This document shows, one piece after another, positions 8,905 to 57,981 of a stretch of 64,000 nucleotides of DNA. The translations under genes were made by a program, and so were the position numbers. Numbering within the stretch: the first letter of the stretch is position 1; every line of letters begins with the position of its first letter. The notes below the pieces were generated by a model, which saw nothing but the letters and a program-made list of their open reading frames with translations, ran no database searches and was not told the DNA's origin. Source of the stretch: a virus; IMG/VR virus record IMGVR_UViG_3300045988_179268, positions 160,001 through 224,000 of that record. One strand, given 5' to 3'.

Positions 8905-8931
8905 CTACTGGGTTGCATAGCCTTCAAAATC

Positions 8932-8942
8932 TGTGGTAGACT
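8932..8942 (+). promoter_or_regulatory. extended -10 promoter motif (TGTGGTAGACT)
   Basis: CAAAATCTGTGGTAGACTATAGG upstream of ORF 9001. Confidence 0.7.
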
Positions 8943-9000
8943 ATAGGTGTAACGAGGTGAACACCTCAAGATTCTAGTTTTCTACCGAAAGGTTCTCATC

Positions 9001-13445: not shown

Positions 13446-13548
13446 AGAGGGGGTAAATCAGCAGTTTCAGATAATGTAGAAAAACAATGAAATTAACCTG
13501 GGAATAGCGAGTATCGTTTCGCGATTTTTGTTATTCCCAGTTACGGTT
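13446..13548 (+). mobile_element. 103-bp mini-copy (MITE-like internal deletion derivative) of the TnpB element at 48094-49794
   Basis: 13446-13495 is the reverse complement of 49745-49794. 13491-13548 is the reverse complement of 48094-48151 with 1 mismatch. The junction falls in the shared TAATTT. It retains the hairpin CTGGGAATA/TATTCCCAG. Confidence 0.75.
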
Positions 13549-19702: not shown

Positions 19703-19713
19703 TGTGGTACAAT
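19703..19713 (+). promoter_or_regulatory. extended -10 promoter motif (TGTGGTACAAT)
   Basis: Overlaps the ORF-track ATG at 19712, so the tnpB start is 19739. Confidence 0.65.
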
Positions 19714-19738
19714 GAGCATAAATGAAAGGAGGAACCTG

Positions 19739-21010
19739 ATGCAACTGACGGAGAGGCACCTTGTTAAGCCGAACCATGAGCTTTATGCGACCCTGGATGA
19801 CTTAACGTTCAAGGCTAAGAACCTTTACAATCATGGGCTATATCTGTACCGTCAGTCGTATTTTGAACACAAAAAGAGCCCTGATGCGCCGGTCTTAACC
19901 TGGGTGGATATTGATAAGAGCCTGCGTAAACAGGGGCACGATGATATTCGTGCTTTGCCGTCTAAAGTCGCTAATGCTGTGCTAAAAAACTTAGGCGAAA
20001 ACATCACGTCGTTTTGGAAATTAGTGCGCCTAAAAAATAGTGGTAAGCTGGCACAAAAGCCTAAGCTCCCTCATTATCTTCATAAGACTGATGGGCGTTA
20101 CGCTGTGTCTTTTAATTATCAGACTTTTGGCAATAAACGTGGCGCTAACGGGGAGCTATTCTTATGCCCAAAGGGTATTAATCTCCCCATTCCTACTAAG
20201 ATTGCTAATCCTAAGCAGGTTCGTATTGTTCCCAACCTCAATAATTTTATTATTGAGGTTATTTATGACGCGGAAGAAAGTGCGCCTAAAAGCACGTCTA
20301 AATATGCTGGTATTGATTTAGGAGTAGATAATTTTGCTACCATCACATTCTCCACCCAAAACCAACCCCTCATTATTAAGGGTCTTGAATTAAAGTCCAT
20401 CAATCAGGGCTATAACCGTCTTATCGCCAAGGCACAGTCTTTGCTTCCAGGTTCCCAGAAGACAAGTCAGTCCATCCACCGTCTTTGGTCACGTCGCTCG
20501 TGGATTCTTCGCACGAAAATCCATCAGATGACAGCGTTCCTAGCTACTCTTTTTGACGAGATGCAGATTGAAAAAGTCTTCATTGGGAAAAATACTGGCT
20601 GGAAGCAGAACCTGCCTTTCGGCAAGAAGGTTAAACAGCGATTCGCATTTCTACCTTATGAAACTTTTATTGAGCAATTGCAGTATAAATGCCAATTGCG
20701 AGGAATTACTGTCATTACCCAGGAAGAATCCTACACATCTAAGGCGAGCTTCCTAGATAATGATGATATTCCTGTTTACGGTGAGACAGAGAATCCAAAG
20801 TTTTCTGGACGCAGGATTAAGCGAGGACTTTACAAAACCAGTGATGGGCGACTAATCAATGCTGACGTTAATGGGTCATATAACATTATGCGAAAAGGAC
20901 TGATGAACAATAATCAGTCCTTACGTGTGGACAACCCATTAATTCATCCCCTTGTCGTCAAGGGAATTGGGCAGGAATCTAACGATAAGTTGGTTCAACT
21001 ATACATGTAA
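19739..21010 (+). CDS. tnpB: TnpB-like protein (IS200/IS605 OrfB family), subclass without zinc ribbon, about 423 aa
   Basis: GIDLGVDNFATI (RuvC-I Asp), IGKNTGWKQ, EESYTSKASF, NADVNGSYNIMRKG (RuvC-III Asp); SD AAAGGAGG. Confidence 0.85.
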   Translation: MQLTERHLVKPNHELYATLDDLTFKAKNLYNHGLYLYRQSYFEHKKSPDAPVLTWVDIDKSLRKQGHDDIRALPSKVANAVLKNLGENITSFWKLVRLKNSGKLAQKPKLPHYLHKTDGRYAVSFNYQTFGNKRGANGELFLCPKGINLPIPTKIANPKQVRIVPNLNNFIIEVIYDAEESAPKSTSKYAGIDLGVDNFATITFSTQNQPLIIKGLELKSINQGYNRLIAKAQSLLPGSQKTSQSIHRLWSRRSWILRTKIHQMTAFLATLFDEMQIEKVFIGKNTGWKQNLPFGKKVKQRFAFLPYETFIEQLQYKCQLRGITVITQEESYTSKASFLDNDDIPVYGETENPKFSGRRIKRGLYKTSDGRLINADVNGSYNIMRKGLMNNNQSLRVDNPLIHPLVVKGIGQESNDKLVQLYM

Positions 21011-27945: not shown

Positions 27946-28039
27946 TCTAAAATTTAATAATTGCCACCCGGTACCGCCGTAAACGTATTGCAGGCGTGTC
28001 GCTCAATGCGCCTACTTCACTTGCGTATGGATTAAAACC

Positions 28040-28050
28040 TGTGGTAGACT
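28040..28050 (+). promoter_or_regulatory. extended -10 promoter motif (TGTGGTAGACT)
   Basis: AAAACCTGTGGTAGACTATAG upstream of ORF 28121. Confidence 0.7.
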
Positions 28051-28120
28051 ATAGATATACCCGAGGGGTTGAGCAACTTCTCAGGCGCACTCCAACCGCA
28101 TAGTGAAAGGTAAAACCTTA

Positions 28121-34193: not shown

Positions 34194-35750
34194 GTGTTGG
34201 CGAAAAATCAGACGTACAGAGCTTTTACCGTGCGCCCGATGCATATTCTAGACCTGAACGGCGAACTAATGGACAGTGCATCTGTCATGTCCCAGCTTGC
34301 CGCTGAGGTTCGAGACATTTCAGCGTATGCCACTTACGTGGTTCGTAATGACACGAAGCTTGCGGCTGACCTGGCTCAGGTTACTGCTGTTCAGCCAGCG
34401 GTTGCGGGTCGTCGGGCGGGTGTGACCATGCCTAACTTCCTTGCGACAGGCAAGTCGGGTAGGTCGCGTAAAGAGTTTCTGGTTCAGCATAACGTAGTTA
34501 CAGCTTTCCGGTCATGGCAGGAACGCATTAAAGCCATCGAGGGCACCTCTTCCAAGTACGTTTCCCAGGGGTGGAGGCGTACTGTGGATACATCTGCACC
34601 CACGTATGGGGATGCTGATTTCATCAACTTGGGCGCTGTAGATAAGCAGTATGCGGTCATCGAGAATAACCCTGTCGCGGATGGCAAAATTGTCCTCAGG
34701 ATGGTAATTTGCGGTCAGTGGTATCGTCTGATTTTCCCCTTTGATAACTCACGGTTCCCTGAGGGTAAAGTAACTCTACCTGTCATTAAAGTTGAAAATA
34801 ATCAACCTGTTTTCATCTTCACGGTCGTTACTGATAACCCTATCATTCAGTTTTCGGGTGACTACACTATCGGTGTAGACGTTGGCATCAATGACTATGC
34901 TACTGTCGTTGTTCGCAACAGTGCTACAGGGCAGATAACCCGGAAAACCACGCTCTCTCAGCGTGTTCATTCGCTCTGGAACAGTGTTCGTGCGTCTGAA
35001 CGGCAGGTTCGCGCGCTTAATAATAAAGCAGATAAGCTTATCTATGACCGTCAGGCTCACATGTCTGCGTTTGATGAGGCTCAGTTTCATCGCGAGGCGG
35101 CTTCTCGTAAGAAACGTGAGTTGGCGATTCTTGTGGCGCAGGAAATTGCCTACCTATCTCACCGTTGGAATAACGCTGTTGTGGTGGTTGAAGACTTGGG
35201 GTGGATTCGCAATACCATGAGTAACGGCAGGTGGAATCGCGGTGCTTTCGTACAGTGGCTCACTCACTATGTCACCCAGAATGGTGGCTGGGTTGTCGCC
35301 GTGAATGCGTCTAATACATCCCAGGTATGCCATGTGTGCGGTGAAAAGGTCACCCATCCTGAGTACAAGGTTTCCATCTGCCCCGAGCACGGTGACATGG
35401 ATAGGGACGTTAATGCCGCCGCAAATATTGCCTCTAGAGCTGTCCCGAAGGTGGATAAAGCTCGTAAGACTCGCGCTAAGAACCGCAAGCTACAGCCACA
35501 GGCGGCTCTTAAGACTCCGCCTGCCCGCGAAACTCTAAAGTATCCCGGCAGGGATAGGACTAAAAATGTTCCTACTCCGAAGAGGAAGAACCGCATTTCT
35601 GAGGAGGTGAATCTCCCCTTTAGCCCCGCTAGGGTGAATATGACTACGGTACTAGCGGACTGCGACACATACGGTGCCGTGGAGACCTCTAAGGCGGCTA
35701 TCAATCAGGGTAATGTAACTCGCGAATATGGGTTATGTAGCCTAAATTGA
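34194..35750 (+). CDS. tnpB: large TnpB-like RuvC nuclease with zinc ribbon and K/R-rich C-terminal extension, 518 aa (start GTG 34194 or TTG 34197)
   Basis: IGVDVGINDYATVV (Asp), VVVVEDLGWIRN (Glu), TSQVCHVCG...CPEHG (zinc ribbon), DRDVNAAANIASRA (Asp). Confidence 0.85.
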   Translation: MLAKNQTYRAFTVRPMHILDLNGELMDSASVMSQLAAEVRDISAYATYVVRNDTKLAADLAQVTAVQPAVAGRRAGVTMPNFLATGKSGRSRKEFLVQHNVVTAFRSWQERIKAIEGTSSKYVSQGWRRTVDTSAPTYGDADFINLGAVDKQYAVIENNPVADGKIVLRMVICGQWYRLIFPFDNSRFPEGKVTLPVIKVENNQPVFIFTVVTDNPIIQFSGDYTIGVDVGINDYATVVVRNSATGQITRKTTLSQRVHSLWNSVRASERQVRALNNKADKLIYDRQAHMSAFDEAQFHREAASRKKRELAILVAQEIAYLSHRWNNAVVVVEDLGWIRNTMSNGRWNRGAFVQWLTHYVTQNGGWVVAVNASNTSQVCHVCGEKVTHPEYKVSICPEHGDMDRDVNAAANIASRAVPKVDKARKTRAKNRKLQPQAALKTPPARETLKYPGRDRTKNVPTPKRKNRISEEVNLPFSPARVNMTTVLADCDTYGAVETSKAAINQGNVTREYGLCSLN

Positions 35751-39054: not shown

Positions 39055-39093
39055 AATAAAAAATCACCCAAGAGTTGCACACTCTCAAATATC

Positions 39094-39104
39094 TGTGGTA
39101 GACT
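39094..39104 (+). promoter_or_regulatory. extended -10 promoter motif (TGTGGTAGACT)
   Basis: Overlaps the ORF-track start at 39095. Confidence 0.7.
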
Positions 39105-39145
39105 ATTTATATAAGTTAAGTTTTCCCTACGGAAAGGCATCAGCC

Positions 39146-44950: not shown

Positions 44951-45733
44951 ATGACTCAGTATGTTCCCCTTGACGGCTACACTGTAACTGCAACCACCGC
45001 CACCTCCAGGCTGAATATGCCATTCACCTCTGATGAGGTAGCTGAGCTTGCCCGCGTTGTCGGTGGCGAGAATGTGGTTAATGCGCCGGTTGCTCGACTG
45101 GAGGAGTTGCGTTTAGACGATGAGGCGAAGGTTGCTGAATTAGCGCTTTCTGAGTCTGACTTCTATAGCTTCCTGGCAACGAACATCCTCTATGGCGCGC
45201 CGGTTACTGTAGTCTCTCAGATTGAAGATGAGGCTCTGCGTGAGAAGGCGCTACTATTTAAGGACACTATGGTACCTGTGGGTGTTGTGACGACTCACGA
45301 TGTTCGCCTCGCTAACGCCCTGGCAACTAGCCTCATTATTGAGGATTCTGACAGCAATATTGTTCTGACTGAGCGTGTGGCTGGTCTGCCTGTGGGTGCT
45401 GGGCTGTATGGTGTCTCTGCAACAAGCGGTGTCAGCATTGATGATGTCCTTGATGGGGCACCTGTTGTGGGCGCAGTCGCACGTGAGGCACGCAAGAGCC
45501 TTGGCGTAGACATTGATGCAGGCGATATTGTTATTCAGGGTATCGGTTTCGGTAAGACGAAGCATCAGCCTGCTATTCTCTGCCATGTGAAGCTGTCTCA
45601 CCCTCTGTCTGTCGAGGATATTCAGGTGGGCGACAAGAATAAGCGTGCTCTTCTTGTGGCGAAGGATGACCAGGAGTTCTTCGATAGTGTGCAGATGAGT
45701 GAAATTGCGCGCCTGCACTTAAGCAAGATTTAA
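44951..45733 (+). CDS. hypothetical protein, 260 aa, probably co-transcribed with the PP2C gene
   Basis: 5-nt gap to the upstream gene. Confidence 0.65.
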   Translation: MTQYVPLDGYTVTATTATSRLNMPFTSDEVAELARVVGGENVVNAPVARLEELRLDDEAKVAELALSESDFYSFLATNILYGAPVTVVSQIEDEALREKALLFKDTMVPVGVVTTHDVRLANALATSLIIEDSDSNIVLTERVAGLPVGAGLYGVSATSGVSIDDVLDGAPVVGAVAREARKSLGVDIDAGDIVIQGIGFGKTKHQPAILCHVKLSHPLSVEDIQVGDKNKRALLVAKDDQEFFDSVQMSEIARLHLSKI

Positions 45734-45748
45734 GTAACAGTATAGAGA

Positions 45749-45796
45749 TGATGCCCCTTCCAGGATGGTGAAAACCTAAATCTGGGAGGGGCATCA
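45749..45796 (+). terminator. hairpin terminator
   Basis: TGATGCCCCTTCC / GGGAGGGGCATCA. Confidence 0.65.
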
Positions 45797-45828
45797 CTAT
45801 GCCGCAAACACGCCATTCATCAAGTATT

Positions 45829-45839
45829 TGTGGTACACT
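45829..45839 (+). promoter_or_regulatory. extended -10 promoter motif (TGTGGTACACT)
   Basis: Upstream of ORF 45891. Confidence 0.7.
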
Positions 45840-45890
45840 ATTCATGTAAATTAATTATTTCCAATTCCTCTCAACTCAAGGAGTGAACAC

Positions 45891-46736
45891 ATGACCGCTT
45901 ACGCAGACATCGACCTTGCCGTCAAGGAAGAAGTCATGAAGCGTCTTCGCAAGCAGAACAAGACCCTTCACCAGGACGCTTGCGAAGCATTTAAGACCCG
46001 CCGCCTCGACATGACCAGCATTATTGCGCAGACATTCGACTTCTCTGAGGGGCTATGCTCATATATCCCCAAGAACATTAGCGATAGCGAATTTGAGAAC
46101 ATCATCTCTCGAAGCATTGTAGACGCAGATAACGCTGAACCTGTCGCTCGACTGTACTATGACCCCATTGAAGAGGATGTTAAGCGTTCCGAACTTACCC
46201 TGTATCGAGACGTTCTGCCTGAGTGGGAGAAGGACGAAGACCTTATCCGAGTACTGACTATGGACATCAGTATCCCCGACTGTAAGTATGATTGCACTTT
46301 CAACGTTGAGGAAGCCGCCCACATCAACCCCACTATGGAGGCACTGCTTCGCGTTGCCATTCTTGGCGACGAAGCACCTTCCCGCACTAAGATTTACGTG
46401 CTTATTTGGGGTTGCTATGCCTCTATCCGCGTCGCTCAGCTTCTCATCAACAAGTATCGTGGTTCTAGTGAGTCACCCGCATCGGATTGGGGCAAGCCTG
46501 ATTGGGAGGAGTTGTGTGATACTCACGCTCTAGCGTATTGCCTTGATACCGTTGATGACGCAGATATTGACCTTGATGCCTTGTATGCTATTGAGGATGA
46601 GGGTGAGAAGGAGCAGTTTGTGCGTGACTGGATTACTCATGAGTGGGCGGAGGCATATGCGGACTATGCGGAGTCCTTCTTGAGTGATTGGGCGAAGGAA
46701 GTTCAGGTTGAGATTGTGGACTACTCCCAAATGTAG
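45891..46736 (+). CDS. hypothetical acidic protein, 281 aa
   Basis: SD AAGGAG. Confidence 0.7.
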   Translation: MTAYADIDLAVKEEVMKRLRKQNKTLHQDACEAFKTRRLDMTSIIAQTFDFSEGLCSYIPKNISDSEFENIISRSIVDADNAEPVARLYYDPIEEDVKRSELTLYRDVLPEWEKDEDLIRVLTMDISIPDCKYDCTFNVEEAAHINPTMEALLRVAILGDEAPSRTKIYVLIWGCYASIRVAQLLINKYRGSSESPASDWGKPDWEELCDTHALAYCLDTVDDADIDLDALYAIEDEGEKEQFVRDWITHEWAEAYADYAESFLSDWAKEVQVEIVDYSQM

Positions 46737-46754
46737 GTGCTTTGTCACTGAATT

Positions 46755-46809
46755 AGCATATTGCCCCCATGCGACCGTTACTTATGATGTCGCATGGGGG
46801 TAATATGCT
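46755..46809 (+). terminator. 21-bp hairpin terminator
   Basis: AGCATATTGCCCCCATGCGAC / GTCGCATGGGGGTAATATGCT. Confidence 0.75.
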
Positions 46810-46837
46810 ATAGGTTCCAATTGCATATTTCTGAATT

Positions 46838-46848
46838 TGTGGTACACT
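46838..46848 (+). promoter_or_regulatory. extended -10 promoter motif (TGTGGTACACT)
   Basis: Upstream of ORF 46893. Confidence 0.7.
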
Positions 46849-46892
46849 GATTTGTAGTTAGAAATTTTCCTACATCTAAGGAGCGACATTCA

Positions 46893-47300
46893 ATGTCCAC
46901 CCCTAAGCACCTCACCGAGGCAACCCTCATTACCTTCAAGCCGACCTGCACGAATCAGGCACCCTCTGCTATCGACCTTGCTCGCATTGCGGCGACTGCC
47001 GCCGGTTACGGCGTAAATAAGGATAAGAAGACCGGCTATTGGCGAGTTTCCCTCATCACCAACAACGGCTCTAACCTGATGGGACCCGGCAAGGTAGGCA
47101 TGATTCAGGGCGAGGTTACGTCGGTAACCGTCGGTCAGAACACCACCAAGGAAGAAGTGCTCGAATATCTCGACAATGAGATGATGTTCGCAGTCCTCAC
47201 CCCCGGCGACACCACCACCAACATTAACTACGACACCGGCGAAGTCACCTTTGCGTTCAAGGGTACCGAGGAAGACTTCAATATCTTCCTGATTGACTAG
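46893..47300 (+). CDS. hypothetical protein, 135 aa
   Basis: SD AAGGAG; antisense ORF 46890-47315 rejected. Confidence 0.7.
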   Translation: MSTPKHLTEATLITFKPTCTNQAPSAIDLARIAATAAGYGVNKDKKTGYWRVSLITNNGSNLMGPGKVGMIQGEVTSVTVGQNTTKEEVLEYLDNEMMFAVLTPGDTTTNINYDTGEVTFAFKGTEEDFNIFLID

Positions 47301-47315
47301 GCGGATATAGCCCAC

Positions 47316-47738
47316 ATGATGAAGAAGGAAACTGAAAAGATTGAGTTCTATCTAGAGGGCATCTGTGAGCTACCAGCATACCAGCGCCAGCTAGTGAACG
47401 ATGTAGTTAATCATGCAGACACTATCACTCTCCAGCCAGGGCGATACTTACCGTCAATACTGGAAGTCCTTGTGGGGCGCGCAGTATTCAGCAATAGCGC
47501 TACGGGTGAAACCATTATGCACCCAGAATCAGAGATTTACCACGCCGCCCCACAACCAGCAGTCTTCCCATACCTAGAGAAAGTGCTGGAACCTGGCATT
47601 GATTGGGGTGAGGATGAACACCCTCAGCCCAAGACTTTTCGCATCAAGAAGATTGAGCTACCCACCTTTAACAAGCAAACAAAACTGCATGACTATCTCA
47701 CAGTAACTCTTTTCACCACCCCTATTACCTCAAACTAA
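47316..47738 (+). CDS. hypothetical protein, 140 aa
   Basis: Operon position; weak SD. Confidence 0.6.
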   Translation: MMKKETEKIEFYLEGICELPAYQRQLVNDVVNHADTITLQPGRYLPSILEVLVGRAVFSNSATGETIMHPESEIYHAAPQPAVFPYLEKVLEPGIDWGEDEHPQPKTFRIKKIELPTFNKQTKLHDYLTVTLFTTPITSN

Positions 47739-47756
47739 AAGGATAAGCTACCAATA

Positions 47757-48095
47757 ATGAGTAACACCACCTTTGAACTTCGATATGCCCGGATGCACAC
47801 CCGCAAGTACCTCAAGGGAAAAATGTCGCCCGCCTACGACAATAGGGACGTACACGATGCCTCCCTCAACACGAAGTACGACATGACCGTCACTATGAGC
47901 ATGGTTGAGCGCGACAGCTGGCGCTTACACAATGTGACTGTCCCTAGAGAGAATGTCACTGTTATTGGCGACCTTCGGAACGGGGAGCCTTACGTCATTG
48001 CTGATGATGATTTCAAGCGCTTTGAGGTGCATATTGACATGACCTTTGTTCACGGTGACATGATTAATTTTGTAGTCCCTGAGGTTAATTTCTAA
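47757..48095 (+). CDS. hypothetical protein, 112 aa
   Basis: SD AAAGGA; the stop codon overlaps the end of the TnpB element. Confidence 0.65.
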   Translation: MSNTTFELRYARMHTRKYLKGKMSPAYDNRDVHDASLNTKYDMTVTMSMVERDSWRLHNVTVPRENVTVIGDLRNGEPYVIADDDFKRFEVHIDMTFVHGDMINFVVPEVNF

Positions 48096-48153
48096 CCGTA
48101 ACTGGGAATAACGAAAATCGCGAAACGATACTCGCTATTCCCAGGTTAATTTT

Positions 48154-48327
48154 AGGGTTTTTCAACCCAAGGTCTTACGGCTAACCTACTCCACATAAGC
48201 TCACCTGGTTTCAACTAAAGAGCCACACAACCAGACTTATCACTTACGCTTCTAAGGAGAACACTACCTTAAAGGGAGATGCGCCACTGCCTTGCGTGGC
48301 TACATCTGTATAAGGCTGTATGTAAGT
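48154..48327 (-). ncRNA. candidate omega-RNA scaffold region of the TnpB element
   Basis: Non-coding stretch between the tnpB stop and the terminal hairpin, which is where omega RNAs are encoded in characterised TnpB loci. No transcript evidence. Confidence 0.3.
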
Positions 48328-49644
48328 TTATTTTACGCTATCTTTGTAGCCTTGTCCACGTCGCGCGATAACGTATGCGGCACCAACATGTGTGTTTAGT
48401 TTCATTGTTGGGCAGTAGAGTTGTTTCGCTAACCATGATGTCCACGCGGGGTTTACACGCCTCACAGATATAGCGCTCCTGTAGGCGCGTCGCTCGATTT
48501 TGTCTATAAACTGCCGATACGCAAGTGAGTGTAGCATCTCGTTGTACTTCCGCCCCTGTTTACGTAGGGTGCTTGCTTTTGCAGTCTTGAAGTTAAGGTC
48601 CTCAACGCAGATGTCCTTTCCTGTCGTTAGCGCGCGTTCCACAACCTTTGTCGCAATCAACTCTAAATCTGTGGACGTTCTATTTCCTGCCTTGAAACGA
48701 TAGGGTAGGAGTTGCGTGTCGGTTAGGTGTCCATACTGGTTCGTTTCCGCTAGGGTCACGAAGCCCTTGTTGAAGTCTAAGCCAATGGTTCCATGCGTGG
48801 AACGTGTCTGAAAGTCGCTCTTGTCCATCTGAATTTCAAAGGTGCAGTACAGGTAGAAACGTCCACGCTTTTTAATAATTTTGAAGCTCAAAGGGGTGTT
48901 GCGCTGGCGGAGCGCCTCTTTAATCCACCTTTTATGGTGGTTAAAATACACGCGACCGTAAACATACTTATCCTTAGCGTTCTTAAACCCGCCAATATCC
49001 TTGCGCAACCTCAGTTCAAACTGATTGTTCTTCGAGTTAAACCACAAATGCAAGATTTGGTTACCTGATGCTTCACTCTTCGAGCCAATAAACGACATAT
49101 GGGCGTCGCGTCTATCTATAAAAGCTTGGTAATCGGTTTGTAAGAGCCGCTTGCTACCAAAGCAGATTTCGTGCCGCCCAGATTCTATCTGGTAGCTCAA
49201 GTTTGCTGATTTTTGCTTCAGCTTATTGAGCTTACTTTTCTGAGCGACAAGCTTCCGTTTAAGGTTTCGGTACTTACCTAGACAGACAGGCAAACCTGTC
49301 TTTAGCGCGGACTTTCCAACCTCTAGGGCGTGGATATTGGCTTCTAGGACTTTGATTTTGTGGGCTAGTTGCTTTTGCTCATGAGCTTTCAGCTCTTTTA
49401 GTGCGTTGAGCTGACCTTGCGCATCGGCAATGATGGAGTTCGCTGTTCGTTTCAGAATTCCGTAAGTTTTTTGAAGATGGGTGTTGTAGCTAGATTTGTT
49501 AAAATCTGGACTGTTTCTGATAGCGTAGAAAGTTTTTCGCTGAGCCTGCGCGTAAGTCCCGCGAGCGCTCTCGAAATAATCGATAATGTCTTGGTTATTC
49601 TTTTCATGAAGCTGTGTCACAGTAGTGAACTTACGCTTAATCAC
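48328..49644 (-). CDS. tnpB: TnpB-like protein, divergent: no zinc ribbon, His where the RuvC-III Asp is expected, 438 aa
   Basis: GTG start behind AGGGGAG. IGLDFNKGFVTLAE (Asp), ICVEDLNFKT (Glu), RVNPAWTSW, NTHVGAAYVIARRG. Confidence 0.8.
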   Translation of the reverse strand: MIKRKFTTVTQLHEKNNQDIIDYFESARGTYAQAQRKTFYAIRNSPDFNKSSYNTHLQKTYGILKRTANSIIADAQGQLNALKELKAHEQKQLAHKIKVLEANIHALEVGKSALKTGLPVCLGKYRNLKRKLVAQKSKLNKLKQKSANLSYQIESGRHEICFGSKRLLQTDYQAFIDRRDAHMSFIGSKSEASGNQILHLWFNSKNNQFELRLRKDIGGFKNAKDKYVYGRVYFNHHKRWIKEALRQRNTPLSFKIIKKRGRFYLYCTFEIQMDKSDFQTRSTHGTIGLDFNKGFVTLAETNQYGHLTDTQLLPYRFKAGNRTSTDLELIATKVVERALTTGKDICVEDLNFKTAKASTLRKQGRKYNEMLHSLAYRQFIDKIERRAYRSAISVRRVNPAWTSWLAKQLYCPTMKLNTHVGAAYVIARRGQGYKDSVK

Positions 49645-49699
49645 GCTTCTCCCCTTACATCTTGTAACTTAAACCCATTAGCAAGTTCCTCAGTACTCA

Positions 49700-49711
49700 C
49701 ATAATACCATA
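49700..49711 (-). promoter_or_regulatory. extended -10-like motif (TATGGTATTATG) upstream of tnpB
   Basis: Fits TGNTANNNT on the minus strand. Confidence 0.4.
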
Positions 49712-49831
49712 CACCCAATGAATACAAAGCACGAAAAATAGGAATAATTTCATTGTTTTTCTACATTATCTGAAACTGCTGATTTACCCCCTCTCCTATT
49801 TCTACCCAAGCATTGTCGAAGCCCTTAAATA

Positions 49832-49842
49832 TGTGGTACAAT
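49832..49842 (+). promoter_or_regulatory. extended -10 promoter motif (TGTGGTACAAT)
   Basis: TTAAATATGTGGTACAATTTAAC. Confidence 0.7.
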
Positions 49843-49877
49843 TTAACTAAGTATTTTTCTAAATAGAAGGAACTATT

Positions 49878-51059
49878 ATGCACATCTATGATAAGCATGG
49901 AAACACCCTGCATTCCCTCAAGGCAGGCGAAGAAGTCATCATCTTCAAGAAGGGAATTATTGCACCCAGGGCAGAACACACCTTTGGCAACCCCAATGTA
50001 ATTTTGGGCAACATCCTTGCCGCAACCAACACATCCGCCCTATTTATGCAGTGGAACACATCAGCCCCTACCCACCGCATCCCTGTAGGTAACGCTAAGA
50101 CTAACGCTCGAACCCTTCTCTACCCCCTCACTGACCAGGAACGACCTTACGGTATTGAAAGTATCCAGACTTGCGGTAAGAACCACCGCTACCGCGACAT
50201 TATGGAAGCTTACGCCTGGGCTAAGCACTACCTCACCACAAGCCCTGTTTACAGTTCCGCGCAGATGCAGAAGAAGCTGTCTGACGGCGCATACAAGAGC
50301 GACCTCAACTTCTCCGCCGAAGAACAGTTGAAAGAAAGCCTCTGCAACACGCTAGCGTCAGTCATTACGCTCACCACCTCCCTATTCCAGGCGGCGAAGT
50401 CCGAAGCGCTAGAAGCTAACGCTAAGGCGCTGAACGCGGTCAATAACCGCTACACCGTCGCCATGCACAACTTCACTGCGCTAGAGGCTGACACGGAGCG
50501 ACACTTCCTGCACGAACGTCTCCTAGTGGCAACTGGTGACATCCTGCGCCTCCATCTGCCCGGCGGAATTGTCCACTACGCGCAGGTGACAGGATTCACG
50601 AAGAAGGGCGATGGCGTGTACCAGGTTCATCTAATGTATGGCAACGGTAATGCTGGTAGCGTCATGCATACTCGCGACCGTGTAATGAATGGTTACATTT
50701 TGGAGGGTGTAGATGCGGCTATCACCGCTGAGAGCATTGACGTTCTCCCTCTTAAATCTATTCAGCAGGCGGAAAGTTGGGCAAGTAAAGCAGAATGGCG
50801 TAAGGTAGGCGAGAATAGCCGCGAAAGCATTATTGCCGCATACGAGAACAATGCCGCAACCCCTGAGGTATTTAAAGCTCCCCTGCGAGAAATTCACCTG
50901 TACCCCAACCCCTATGAAGTAGACCGTCACTATGACATGGAGGACATGCTTGAAGAAGTTCTACTTGAAAACTTCTACACCGAAGGTGAAGGCTACCAGG
51001 CATACCGCAAGGCAGTAGAAGCCCTCACTAATATTATTGCTCACATCAAAACCTGCTAA
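49878..51059 (+). CDS. two-barrel (GD-motif) paralog family member, 393 aa
   Basis: LKAGEEVIIFKKG N-terminus and VATGDILRLHLPGGIVHYAQVTG second barrel. Confidence 0.8.
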   Translation: MHIYDKHGNTLHSLKAGEEVIIFKKGIIAPRAEHTFGNPNVILGNILAATNTSALFMQWNTSAPTHRIPVGNAKTNARTLLYPLTDQERPYGIESIQTCGKNHRYRDIMEAYAWAKHYLTTSPVYSSAQMQKKLSDGAYKSDLNFSAEEQLKESLCNTLASVITLTTSLFQAAKSEALEANAKALNAVNNRYTVAMHNFTALEADTERHFLHERLLVATGDILRLHLPGGIVHYAQVTGFTKKGDGVYQVHLMYGNGNAGSVMHTRDRVMNGYILEGVDAAITAESIDVLPLKSIQQAESWASKAEWRKVGENSRESIIAAYENNAATPEVFKAPLREIHLYPNPYEVDRHYDMEDMLEEVLLENFYTEGEGYQAYRKAVEALTNIIAHIKTC

Positions 51060-51076
51060 AAGGAGTTTAACCTCAT

Positions 51077-51829
51077 ATGATTAAGACTGATAGTCGAGAG
51101 TTAATGACTGACCAGCAGAGGTGGGTTATGGACAATCTGCTAGGCGAAACGGTAACTAGCACCCAATATGAGGTAGCTAACCTTCCCGCCTATGGTATCC
51201 GTGGTTCACGAAGCTACCAGCCATACATCATTGCGACGAACCAGCTGGGCATGAAAATCTACGAGCCTGTTTCTAGGCTTATCAATAAGTCGTCTATCGA
51301 CAGCCAGGGGTATCTCACAGCCCTTCTAAAGCAGGTGGGCGAGGATGATGACGCTACCTTGCGTCTCATTGAACATTTCTGTGTACTATCCACTAATGTT
51401 GATAGTGGTTCGCACTGGGTGCCAGTGAAGCGTGACCGCAAGGCGGGACATGTGGGTAAGTCCTACCGCCTTATGCCCATTGGAAGGGACTATGTGGTGC
51501 TTCGCCTATGGAACCAGACAGCGGAATTGGCGAACGTGGGTGAGTTCCTGCCGTTTTCCGCATGGCAGACCATCAGTTCCTCGGAGTGGGCGGAGATTGC
51601 GCCACGTCAGCGAGGGGTTATCCCTCATGCCTCCCTGGGTAATGGTGACGACAAGTCGGCTCTTGCCTTGGTTGCGCAGTGGAAGAGCGGTTCTGTAGCG
51701 ATTAGCGATGTGGAGGTGAATCCAGGTAGGGTTTCCCTCGACTTCACTGCCGCAACATACGCTTTCACAGCAGATTCTCATAACATTAAATATGCCGACT
51801 TCATTATCCCCCTAGAGGAGCTTGCGTAA
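51077..51829 (+). CDS. hypothetical protein, 250 aa
   Basis: SD AAAGGAG. Confidence 0.7.
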   Translation: MIKTDSRELMTDQQRWVMDNLLGETVTSTQYEVANLPAYGIRGSRSYQPYIIATNQLGMKIYEPVSRLINKSSIDSQGYLTALLKQVGEDDDATLRLIEHFCVLSTNVDSGSHWVPVKRDRKAGHVGKSYRLMPIGRDYVVLRLWNQTAELANVGEFLPFSAWQTISSSEWAEIAPRQRGVIPHASLGNGDDKSALALVAQWKSGSVAISDVEVNPGRVSLDFTAATYAFTADSHNIKYADFIIPLEELA

Positions 51830-51842
51830 TCTGGAGGTCGTT

Positions 51843-51888
51843 TACCGTTGCTGGTGGTAAAATTATTTCTGTGCCACTCGCAACGGTA
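51843..51888 (+). terminator. hairpin (TACCGTTGC / GCAACGGTA)
   Basis: After the stop of 51077-51829. Confidence 0.5.
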
Positions 51889-51908
51889 GTTGCGCAACCT
51901 TCAAAATA

Positions 51909-51919
51909 TGTGGTATAGT
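51909..51919 (+). promoter_or_regulatory. extended -10 promoter motif (TGTGGTATAGT)
   Basis: Followed by an approximately 110-nt leader before ORF 52033. Confidence 0.65.
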
Positions 51920-52032
51920 TTAGGTAGATTGAAATTTGAGGTGGCTACAGGGAGGAAACCTGAAAGCACCTACAAACCAACCACAGCTCAAAGAATACCT
52001 GTGGCGACCGCTACCCCCTAAGGAGAGACGCA

Positions 52033-52998
52033 ATGACTTCAAGTAACCCACAAGTCAAGAACGCAATCAACATCATCAACAACACCCTAGAGAGCATGAA
52101 GAAGCCATCCCAGTATGGCACGGAACTCACTAAGGACAAGCTGGATAAAATTGCAACCCCTGAACTGGGGTATCTGCTGAACATTATGCATCAGCAGTGG
52201 GAAATCATTAAGACCGTAGGTGTCACTACCAACAGTGGTGAAAAGCGACGCAATTACGAGCGTGCAACCAATATCCTGCGCGAAACGCTCATCACCATCC
52301 TGGACGAAGGTCATAAGACCAACTCCCGCAAGCAGGAAGTCCGCAAGGAATACTACACTAAGCTTGCACGTCACGCCGGTAAGCTCAACGCAATCTGGCA
52401 CAGCATCACCCCTATCGGAACCCCTCGAAAGACCCCTAACGCACCCTACACGGAGGAATACATGGAACGCCGCAACACTCTTAACGCCGACAAGGAACTG
52501 AACACCCTGCGCGGAATCAACGCCGCAAACATCATCACCCTCTGGGAAGCTGAACTGCGTAAGTCCGTAGCGAAGGCTAACAAGAACGCCCTCGATGAAA
52601 GCATCCGAACCATCTACGCAAGTGGCAGTAAGGACACTGAGGCGAAGGGTGTAGCAAGCCGCGCGGCAACCGGCGCTAACTACATCAAGAACACCGTTAT
52701 GCGTAACCTTGACTCCGCAATGGAACAGCTTAACACCATCATCGACTCCACTAGCGACCTCATTATCAAGCGTGAGAACCAGCTGACCAGTGAAGCACTT
52801 AGTGACAGTGGTGAAAACATCCTGCACCTCATCAAGACCCCTAAGAAGGGTTCTGCTGACGGCAAGGAAGTGAAGCGTAAGGCTGAACAGGTTAGCCAGC
52901 ACCTCAAGGCGTACAGTGAAATCACCAGCGAAGATAAGAAGTTTGAAGATATTGACGCTGACATGTACATTGACCAGTTGCTCAAGGACGGTGAATAG
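52033..52998 (+). CDS. hypothetical coiled-coil protein, 321 aa; paralog of 6876-7757
   Basis: SD TAAGGAG; antisense ORF 52087-52902 rejected. Confidence 0.75.
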   Translation: MTSSNPQVKNAINIINNTLESMKKPSQYGTELTKDKLDKIATPELGYLLNIMHQQWEIIKTVGVTTNSGEKRRNYERATNILRETLITILDEGHKTNSRKQEVRKEYYTKLARHAGKLNAIWHSITPIGTPRKTPNAPYTEEYMERRNTLNADKELNTLRGINAANIITLWEAELRKSVAKANKNALDESIRTIYASGSKDTEAKGVASRAATGANYIKNTVMRNLDSAMEQLNTIIDSTSDLIIKRENQLTSEALSDSGENILHLIKTPKKGSADGKEVKRKAEQVSQHLKAYSEITSEDKKFEDIDADMYIDQLLKDGE

Positions 52999-53000
52999 CC

Positions 53001-56412: not shown

Positions 56413-57981
56413 ATGCGACACATGTACTTCCTCACAGGGGCACCTGGTTCTGGTAAGAGTACTTACGTCAAGAATGTAATTAAGCGACACAAACTGGGTC
56501 GCGTCATCTCCTGGGATGACTACCGCAATCGTTTCCGTGACCCTCACAATGATGAAACCTACGACATCCCCGTATATGCCGAAGAAGACGGGGTTGCTGT
56601 AGAAACCAGTGTGAAGCCACTCACCAAGGCGCAAGAAAAGATGGCAATCGACATCTCCTATATGGAAACTGAAATGCATGTACGCAACGGTGAAACCATC
56701 TTCATTGATAACACCAACACCAAGGTTCGCAATATGCGCGGCTTCCTCGACCTTGCGGAACGGTACGCCTACAAGGTATGGTTCATCGACATTCAGGGCG
56801 ACCAGACCCTAGAGCAGATTCTTGAACAGAACGCTTACCGCACCGGATACAAGCGAGTCTCTGATGAAATTGTGTCCAACATGCACGCACAGAACATTGA
56901 GCTACGTGCGAACTGGCGCAACATCTTCCAGGACAAGGATAACGTCAAGGGGTATATTGCCCCTGATGCCCTCATTGATAATCTCAAATCCTACGTGAAC
57001 TTCCAGAAGCCTGTTCGTTCACTCACTATGGGCACAGACTTTGGCAGGCAATACGAGCGAGTATGCATCTTTGGCGACGTTCAGGGAATGGGCGACACTC
57101 TAGAAGCCGCAATCCATAGCCTTTCACCTGACAAGGGGCTACACGACATGAGCACCCTTTGGATTTTCATTGGCGACCTGTTCGACCGAGGCAACAACCC
57201 CGTCAAGGTGGCAGAACTTGTACTACCTCACCTGCTTAACAACGCCCGCAACGTGAAGCTCATCAACGGCAACCACGAGTCGCAGGTACTTAACGCATAC
57301 GCAGGCGCTAACACCAATAAAGACACCCTGGACACTATTCGGGCACTTAGGGCGGCTGGGTATGGAGATGCCTGGGTCAAGACGGCTTTAACTGAGGCAC
57401 TACCCGCCGCCGAGCTTCGCCTCGACAGTGTAGATGAAGACGGTAGTATCTACAGCAAGTACCTGTACCTAACCCACGCGGGCGCACACCCGAAACTACA
57501 CGTCGATTCACTACACATCAAGGAGAATGGTTCCGGTAGGGGCAACCCCTACGGTAGCATCTACCGCTTACCTCTCAAGTATTGGGAAACCGGCTATAGT
57601 GACATTGAAGACTTCCGATACGGGTACAGCACCTACAAAGGTTGGGCTGAACCCCTCAACGACCTCTATGCTAAGGCGACCCGCCTGCACGTAGAGAACG
57701 GTGGGCACCCCAAGAGTGAACTTGTCGCAGTGTGTGGGCACCGTGGCGGATACGGCGACCCTGCACAGTACTCGAACCTTATTCCCCTGGAGTCCGAGGT
57801 AGAGTACGAGGGTGGCTCCCTTAGCGTTGCGGTATTTACCGCCCGCAAGGTGAAGCCTGTCACCTTTGGCTATCGGAAGACTTTTAAGCATGTTTGGGAT
57901 TATGAGCGACGCGAATACCCAGGCAATAGTGATGCTGAAAGGTTCTGGGTTTCCACTTCGGAGAAGCGCCAGAGCAAATAG
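56413..57981 (+). CDS. bifunctional P-loop (polynucleotide-)kinase / calcineurin-like metallophosphatase fusion (Pnkp-like), 522 aa
   Basis: Walker A FLTGAPGSGKST at the N-terminus. Metallophosphoesterase motifs IFGDVQGMGD, GDLFDRGN, NGNHE, LTHAG, CGHRG in the C-terminal half. Confidence 0.8.
   Translation: MRHMYFLTGAPGSGKSTYVKNVIKRHKLGRVISWDDYRNRFRDPHNDETYDIPVYAEEDGVAVETSVKPLTKAQEKMAIDISYMETEMHVRNGETIFIDNTNTKVRNMRGFLDLAERYAYKVWFIDIQGDQTLEQILEQNAYRTGYKRVSDEIVSNMHAQNIELRANWRNIFQDKDNVKGYIAPDALIDNLKSYVNFQKPVRSLTMGTDFGRQYERVCIFGDVQGMGDTLEAAIHSLSPDKGLHDMSTLWIFIGDLFDRGNNPVKVAELVLPHLLNNARNVKLINGNHESQVLNAYAGANTNKDTLDTIRALRAAGYGDAWVKTALTEALPAAELRLDSVDEDGSIYSKYLYLTHAGAHPKLHVDSLHIKENGSGRGNPYGSIYRLPLKYWETGYSDIEDFRYGYSTYKGWAEPLNDLYAKATRLHVENGGHPKSELVAVCGHRGGYGDPAQYSNLIPLESEVEYEGGSLSVAVFTARKVKPVTFGYRKTFKHVWDYERREYPGNSDAERFWVSTSEKRQSK

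Follow-up and report, generated by a model that had tools for sequence, protein, structure and literature searches.

A TnpB element of the RIIIr-4 type without a transposase gene, probably a non-autonomous IS607-family insertion, in a large phage from human-associated metagenomes

The window analyzed here is a 64,000-nt stretch of a virus genome (IMG/VR record IMGVR_UViG_3300045988_179268, positions 160,001 to 224,000), which contains on its minus strand an inserted element of 1,691 bp (48095-49785). On the element strand, its parts are a left end (LE; 49645-49785), which starts with AAATCAGCAGTTTCAGATAATGTAGAA and was recognized by LE alignment, the tnpB gene (48328-49644), encoding a protein of 438 aa, and the scaffold of an omega RNA (48095-48316), which reaches the right end (RE) of the element. 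The tetranucleotide GGGT (49786-49789, minus strand; ACCC on the plus strand) lies directly 5' of the LE. An initial annotation, made from the sequence alone, had described the locus as a TnpB-only element at 48094-49794 with a His at the RuvC-III position, and no tnpA gene was found either in this copy or elsewhere in the window, in agreement with that description.

The limits of the element were obtained from vacant alleles, from a near-identical copy elsewhere, and from end alignments of 16-50 loci. The vacant alleles belong to two related phages, L109 and L110, which have matching neighbor genes and no insertion; they were found via neighbor-protein homologues at 91-94% identity, exact look-ups of the neighbor proteins having returned nothing beyond the same strain or contig breaks. 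They provide the comparison with genomes lacking the insertion that the initial annotation had proposed. The junction in L109 and L110 reads ...TTTCTA/ACCCAC..., and the window reads ...TTTCTA/ACCGTAAC...GATTT/ACCCCC..., therefore the inserted DNA is 48095-49785. Both junctions (48095-48097 and 49786-49788) have the trinucleotide ACC, which is GGT on the element strand; this leaves a 3-nt ambiguity at each boundary, and beyond this shared GGT there is no target duplication between vacant and occupied alleles. When viral contigs were searched with the predicted vacant junction (exact 20-mer), no match was obtained; the real vacant alleles diverge just past ACC. In the end alignments, the sequence conserved among loci begins at (A)AATCAGCAGTTTC and ends after ...AGTTACGG(T); the RE terminus is ...ACGG(T), that is, the element ends in CGGT. 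The LE start and the RE end are not inverted repeats of each other, and the motif TTATTCC, found within the LE and also in the right-end hairpin, is a candidate recombinase-binding repeat. Hence the annotated insertion is real, with its boundaries corrected by the vacant alleles and 40 insertion sites; 49794 lies too far to the right because the 9 nt AGAGGGGGT (element strand) are target sequence shared by the sites of the full copy and of the mini-copy described below. The element end does overlap the native TAA of ORF (open reading frame) 47757-48095, as annotated, and this stop codon survives because the plus strand has an A both at the last base of the element and at the base that opens the target motif.

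The 438-aa reading frame has the motifs given in the initial annotation, GLDFNKG and CVEDLNF, followed by NTHVGAAYVIARRG, with the putative catalytic residues Asp290 (RuvC-I) and Glu348 (RuvC-II) and with His419 at the RuvC-III position. Its five cysteines are isolated and no CxxC is present, so there is no zinc ribbon, as had also been noted. The protein matches NCBIfam TIGR01766 (41.9 bits, cut-off 32), and the guided_TnpB model scores 44 bits, below its cut-off; the Pfam search gave nothing above cut-off and PHROGs nothing useful. Single-sequence methods detect TnpB-like similarity only at residues 324-403, and searches of PDB sequences with phmmer and with the family profile found no TnpB or Cas12 match. 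Among GenBank phages, tblastn recovered only four Thermus phage TnpBs with 28% identity, and a megablast search with 45000-53000 gave no match. The AF2 model (72-sequence alignment; predicted local distance difference test score 93.5, predicted template modeling score 0.85) has a predicted WED-REC-RuvC fold with the RuvC-I Asp and the RuvC-II Glu, and places H419 at the N-terminus of the last helix; the top Foldseek matches to this model are Cas12f, CasX, Cas12m, Fanzor2, ISFba1 TnpB, and RuvC. In comparison with ISDra2 TnpB (PDB 8EXA, 8H1J) and Cas12f, the window TnpB has the same WED-REC-RuvC architecture and alignable RuvC-I and RuvC-II motifs, but lacks the TNB zinc ribbon, has N-T-H-V-G in place of DRDxN or NADxN, and has a REC domain made of two very long helices (residues 65-116 and 122-155).

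The residue at the RuvC-III position was located by profile-profile alignment with hhalign, in which the family profile was compared with an alignment of seven canonical TnpBs (96.3% probability). In this alignment GLDFN pairs with GiDlG, CVEDL with IxiEdL, and KLNTH--VGAAYVIARRG with G...drD.NAA.NIl..G. When read without the gap from the GAA/NAA anchor, the His falls on the catalytic Asp, and neither the gapped nor the ungapped reading offers an acidic residue in the segment KLNTHVGAA, which bears out the His proposed in the initial annotation. The alignment of the family to a single InsQ sequence covered RuvC-I only (31.7%). The family is very large, with 4,084 matching clusters at 90% identity and 1,567 representatives at 50% identity (E<=1e-3). 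Among 18 sequences of 54-87% identity, D290, E348, and H419 are invariant and D435 nearly so; the His is present in 119 of the 120 family representatives with a recognizable C-terminal helix, and the zinc ribbon (two CxxC between RuvC-II and RuvC-III) in none of these 120. The ratio of nonsynonymous to synonymous substitution rates (dN/dS) against four relatives of ~90% identity is 0.13-0.16 (about 0.14), and the tnpB gene is under purifying selection.

These features coincide with those of a major TnpB clade, RIIIr-4, described as having the RuvC-III Asp-to-His change, no C4 zinc finger, and an enrichment in viruses (Altae-Tran et al. 2023, PNAS, PMC10691335). The comparison was made with one sequence labeled RIIIr-4 in the supplement of Nety et al. 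2023, the first 399 aa of ortholog #39 from Nocardiopsis dassonvillei, to which the family profile aligns with 99.1% probability (hhalign, E 8.2e-19, 243 columns); the C-terminus is SRHDAASIAVGRRAQG in the Nocardiopsis ortholog, translated from the RNA listed there, versus NTHVGAAYVIARRGQG in the window TnpB. By these alignments, the window TnpB is a typical member of RIIIr-4, its His being a signature of the clade and not a lesion. Of the two options left by the initial annotation, the evidence favors a different third ligand throughout the lineage, because fixation of the His extends over a very large family that corresponds to this published clade. The branch to which the window TnpB belongs shares with RIIIr-4 the His, the missing C4 zinc finger, and the viral over-representation; it differs in its occurrence, which is in Bacillota metagenome-assembled genomes and in large phages from human-associated samples, and no ribbon-helix-helix/MazE-like partner gene was noted for it. 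The window TnpB is also shorter than the RIIIr-4 ortholog (438 vs 529 aa), as is its omega RNA (~220 nt vs 466 nt in the tested ortholog).

The stretch 3' of tnpB, in which the initial annotation had expected an omega RNA, matches Rfam RF03065 (IS605-orfB-I) at 48092-48316 on the minus strand with 195.9 bits (cmscan; gathering score 94.2), covering model positions 1-214 of 214. Covariation and folding agree with this assignment: among 16 loci, 32 of the 61 predicted pairs have compensatory changes, and the folding z-score is -4.9. The scaffold includes a terminal hairpin (48102-48145, minus strand), and the UUACGG at the scaffold 3' end base-pairs with a CCGUAA further inside, which makes the transposon end a part of the scaffold. 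The window RNA has no structural difference from RF03065, with a full-length match directly 3' of tnpB that ends at the transposon end; interpreted as an omega RNA, it gains a defined boundary of the guide and a target-adjacent motif (TAM). A sigma-70-like promoter match, TGGACA-17-TAAAAT (48330-48358, minus strand; 10/12 in a consensus scan), is located inside the last tnpB codons, with TGGACA or TGGGCA, N17, and TATAAR in the relatives; this pattern match is a candidate promoter, placed to start the omega RNA.

Conservation among loci drops sharply after ...GTTACGGT, and this drop, together with the vacant alleles, places the predicted guide portion, UAGAAAUUAACCUCAGGGAC, at 48075-48094 (minus strand). 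The predicted guide is antisense to the last codons and the stop codon of ORF 47757-48095, and the earlier expectation that any guide would run into the 3' part of this gene is confirmed by the sequence check. In 26 of 40 independent insertion sites, GGGT occupies positions -6 to -3 counted from the conserved ATCAGCAG, versus 0.9% of random positions; this site enrichment and the vacant alleles mark it as the transposase target motif and the predicted TAM of TnpB. In L109 and L110, the 30 nt past the window RE are matched 30/30 directly 3' of GGGT, which is what TnpB with its omega RNA would require for an attack on the vacant alleles. The 10-nt repeat AGGTTAATTT described in the initial annotation does occur at 48082-48091 and 48143-48152, but is no feature of the family. 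The words shared by flank and scaffold have means of 5.35 for the own scaffold and 5.43 for scaffolds of other loci, with ten-mers in 0.4% of control pairs; as a sign of target choice the repeat was rejected, being compatible with chance.

An identical TnpB protein is encoded in three further contigs (L001-L003), where the element is inserted at a different site, homologous to ~28063-28070 of the window. This element is 99.35% identical to the window copy in flanks that are ~82% identical, which implies recent movement between diverged phage genomes. The corresponding vacant site in the window, GAGGGGT/TGAGCAAC..., lies at 28063-28099 on the plus strand. About 95 further loci were found in IMG/VR and metagenome scans, most of them on contigs of 180-390 kb, and several phage contigs have 2-3 copies of the element. 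The window itself contains a second, much reduced copy on its plus strand, similar to a miniature inverted-repeat transposable element (MITE), of 93 bp (13455-13547). The initial annotation had placed it at 13446-13548; the copy is real, with no matches in 100 shuffles, and only its extent changes. Its left part matches the element left end over 50 nt with 100% identity and its right part the right end over 73 nt with 93% identity; in the mini-copy, the first ~41 nt of the LE and the final ~52 nt of the RE meet at an AAATTA microhomology. The mini-copy is immediately preceded by GGGT (13451-13454), which forms the 3' arm of a terminator-like hairpin, and it is a further reduced derivative of the tnpA-less element. 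Other variants were observed among the relatives: L011 has at 2652-2864 a solo right end with its omega-RNA scaffold, 92% identical to that of L010, which precedes a complete element of this phage by ~35 nt, and L015, L022, L024, and L025 have a variant left end with a perfect 20-bp hairpin (AATGAATACAAAGCACGAAA...TTTCGTGCTTTGTATTCATT), compared with 49700-49760 of the window, the loop of which is inverted relative to the matching window sequence.

The type of transposon is indicated by the relatives. In eight loci (L030, L036, L038, L091, L092, L094, L102, and L103), a protein with a MerR helix-turn-helix (HTH) and a Resolvase domain is encoded directly upstream of the tnpB homolog. The TnpB of L030 is about 70% identical to the window TnpB, and in L030 and L038 the LE start of the window element is found upstream of the serine-recombinase gene. 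Elements of the IS607 family are described as using a (G)GG target, with GG at the terminus, no target duplication, and no inverted repeats (PMC6188088), and for CboIStron a TGGG target that equals the TnpB TAM is reported, with TnpB-dependent retention and homing shown (bioRxiv 10.1101/2023.11.20.567912). The window element has a GG-type target, a terminal GG, no target duplication, no terminal inverted repeats, and a predicted TAM equal to its target motif, and its autonomous relatives have the gene order tnpA (MerR-HTH and serine-recombinase catalytic domain)-tnpB of IS607, IS1535, and CboIStron. An upstream serine-recombinase TnpA with a MerR-type HTH is present in the relatives only, and given the IS607-type target and end, the window copy is classed as a derivative of the IS607 family that lacks tnpA, and not as an autonomous IS607. 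It also differs from known members by the extra T of its motif (GGGT, with an RE ending in CGGT) and by its Asp-Glu-His residues, the studied IS607 TnpBs being Asp-Glu-Asp. The element thus belongs to groups already described, namely RIIIr-4, the IS607 family, and Rfam RF03065; the IS607 type with a serine recombinase in autonomous relatives, the curated Rfam RNA, and the GGGT target/TAM go beyond the initial annotation.

Here it is proposed that the locus is most probably a non-autonomous IS607-family insertion in a large phage from human-associated metagenomes, which lost tnpA and kept its ends, its RIIIr-4 tnpB, and its omega RNA. The element would be excised as a circle by a serine recombinase supplied in trans from full-length relatives, and the circle would be re-inserted beside (G)GG(T) by exchange over the GG common to the target and the right end, without target duplication. 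TnpB would bind the omega RNA, the last ~20 nt of which would be transcribed from the DNA flanking the right end, and the complex would recognize GGGT followed by the right-end flank, a combination expected only on the vacant or excised allele. If the Asp-Glu-His site is active, the vacant allele would be cut, and recombination with an occupied genome copy could then restore or spread the element. In phages, this process would operate during co-infection, a setting proposed because related phages carry a perfectly matching vacant allele. There is also a small but real chance that the Asp-Glu-His RuvC is not a standard double-strand cutter, and that it may instead act as a nickase, cleave single-stranded or R-loop DNA only, or do no more than bind.

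Several observations weigh against this proposal. No serine recombinase is encoded in the 64-kb window, the copy itself having no tnpA. The hhalign comparison with canonical TnpBs opens a two-residue gap directly after the His, so the His/Asp equivalence is supported by the published alignment, by the helix anchor GAA/NAA, and by the AF2 secondary structure, and not by an unambiguous column. According to the supplement of Nety et al. 2023, the sole RIIIr-4 ortholog tested processed its omega RNA and was inactive in a TAM screen on double-stranded DNA; no published DNA cleavage by a His-type TnpB and no later paper on the His variant were found. GGGT is absent at the left junction of the L001-L003 copies, which reads TAGATGTCG/AATCAGCAG (L001 5850-5861, also L002 and L003), the vacant window site being ATACCCGAGGGGT there, and with the target motif missing, excision and TAM recognition of that allele should be blocked. 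In the window, ~56 nt beside the left end are gone (49786-49815) relative to the vacant alleles L109 (2846-2920) and L110, so the history of this junction goes beyond a simple insertion. The lost stretch includes the 5' arm of a rho-independent terminator, and both this stretch and the sequence retained after the deletion start with ACCC (GGGT on the element strand). There are hints here of a recombinase-mediated adjacent deletion or of an insertion at a second GGGT.

The element could instead belong to IS200/IS605 proper and move as single-stranded DNA through a Y1 (HUH) TnpA acting on the terminal hairpin, which we regard as very unlikely. The Rfam family is named after IS605 and a strong hairpin adjoins the right end, but this hairpin is one of the covarying helices of the omega RNA, and the GG-type target and terminal GG fit IS607. 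A phmmer search with IS608 TnpA (sequence verified against 2A6M) found no Y1 transposase in the window and a single match in about 100 loci, in the distant L094, so a Y1 HUH transposase is not associated with the element. The Y1 (IS200-like) gene of L094 (244-663) is followed ~500 nt downstream by a serine-recombinase gene (1165-1848) that abuts the tnpB homolog; the Y1 gene hence looks like part of a neighboring element, and the two genes are probably two adjacent or nested elements. The serine recombinase, in contrast, is found in the canonical IS607 position in eight loci, including the ~70% identical relative with the same LE.

Two further readings concern function in the IS607-family copy. 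According to one of them, which the initial annotation had offered and which appears improbable, the His-type TnpB is nuclease-dead and serves only as an RNA-guided binder, a roadblock or repressor like TldR or Cas12m, with the vacant alleles or the 3' part of the upstream gene as its target. In favor of this reading, the catalytic Asp at the third position is replaced, as are both Asn of DxNAAxNI, and the inactivity of the tested ortholog points the same way. TldR and Cas12m also have an altered RuvC-III region in a TnpB-derived protein, but they are immobile, located beside fixed target genes, and decayed or truncated in their active site, unlike the window TnpB with its mobile element and strictly conserved Asp-Glu-His. 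A His serves as metal ligand in RNase H-fold nucleases such as the Cas9 RuvC and Argonaute, which speaks against this reading. Asp290 and Glu348 are invariant and the His is fixed rather than variable (119/120), and the conserved substitution was taken by the authors who described the clade as a sign of retained activity (PMC10691335). The element is mobile and multi-copy with a different guide at each site, so there is no fixed regulatory target as for TldRs, and on the occupied allele the element itself splits the guide target from GGGT. The mobility, the purifying selection, and the invariant Asp290/Glu348/His419 would thus make a nuclease-impaired binder a poor fit. The other reading, that the window copy is a dead relic without current function, has an almost negligible probability: it would accord with the missing transposase gene and with the left flank, rearranged relative to the vacant alleles, but the ORF is intact and under purifying selection, the RNA matches the full model length, and a near-identical copy occupies a different site in diverged phages.

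In addition to the non-autonomous IS607-family element, the window contains two further TnpB-like genes. The gene at 19712-21010 (plus strand; 432 aa) has Pfam OrfB_IS605 and Cas12f1-like_TNB matches, and by its motifs FIGKNTGWKQ, EESYTSKASFLD, and INADVNGSYNI it is similar to RIIr-5, a clade with a rearranged RuvC-II, as represented by the Mitsuokella ortholog #38 in the supplement of Nety et al. The gene at 34194-35750 (plus strand; 518 aa) has a TNB-domain match and a match to phrog_506, "transposase"; thus, together with the 438-aa TnpB, three different TnpB lineages are present in the window. A repeated promoter-like motif of the extended -10 type, TTGC...N...TGTGGTAGACTATAG, is found upstream of many genes (8913-8951, 19166, 28021-28059, 31632, 39075-39113, 51890-51928, 54274, and 49830-49842) and is probably the phage's own promoter class. 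The gene at 56413-57981 (plus strand; 522 aa) encodes AAA_33 kinase and metallophosphatase domains with a match to the PHROG "RNA ligase / polynucleotide kinase", and its product looks like an RNA-repair-type enzyme.

The contribution of these results is mainly clarification: the odd His is the signature of a clade, and the RNA motif named after "IS605" is an omega RNA that belongs to an element of IS607 type. They also connect mobility by serine recombinase (IS607-type) with a TnpB clade and with a curated Rfam family, a link not stated in the parts of the cited papers drawn on here. With a 438-aa TnpB, an RNA of ~220 nt, GGGT as the predicted TAM, and a defined guide boundary, the element is a well-specified test candidate for the chemistry of the Asp-Glu-His site in the largest RuvC-III-variant clade. 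Related phages provide matched alleles, occupied and vacant, with the guide matching at 30/30 positions, the configuration that a test of RNA-guided homing between phages would require. If the Asp-Glu-His enzyme is indeed not a standard cutter, the route by which such elements spread from one co-infecting jumbo phage to another would differ from the homing through double-strand breaks shown for Asp-Glu-Asp TnpBs, and this phage family, with its natural occupied and vacant alleles, perfect guide match, and G-rich TAM, would be a system in which to show such a route.

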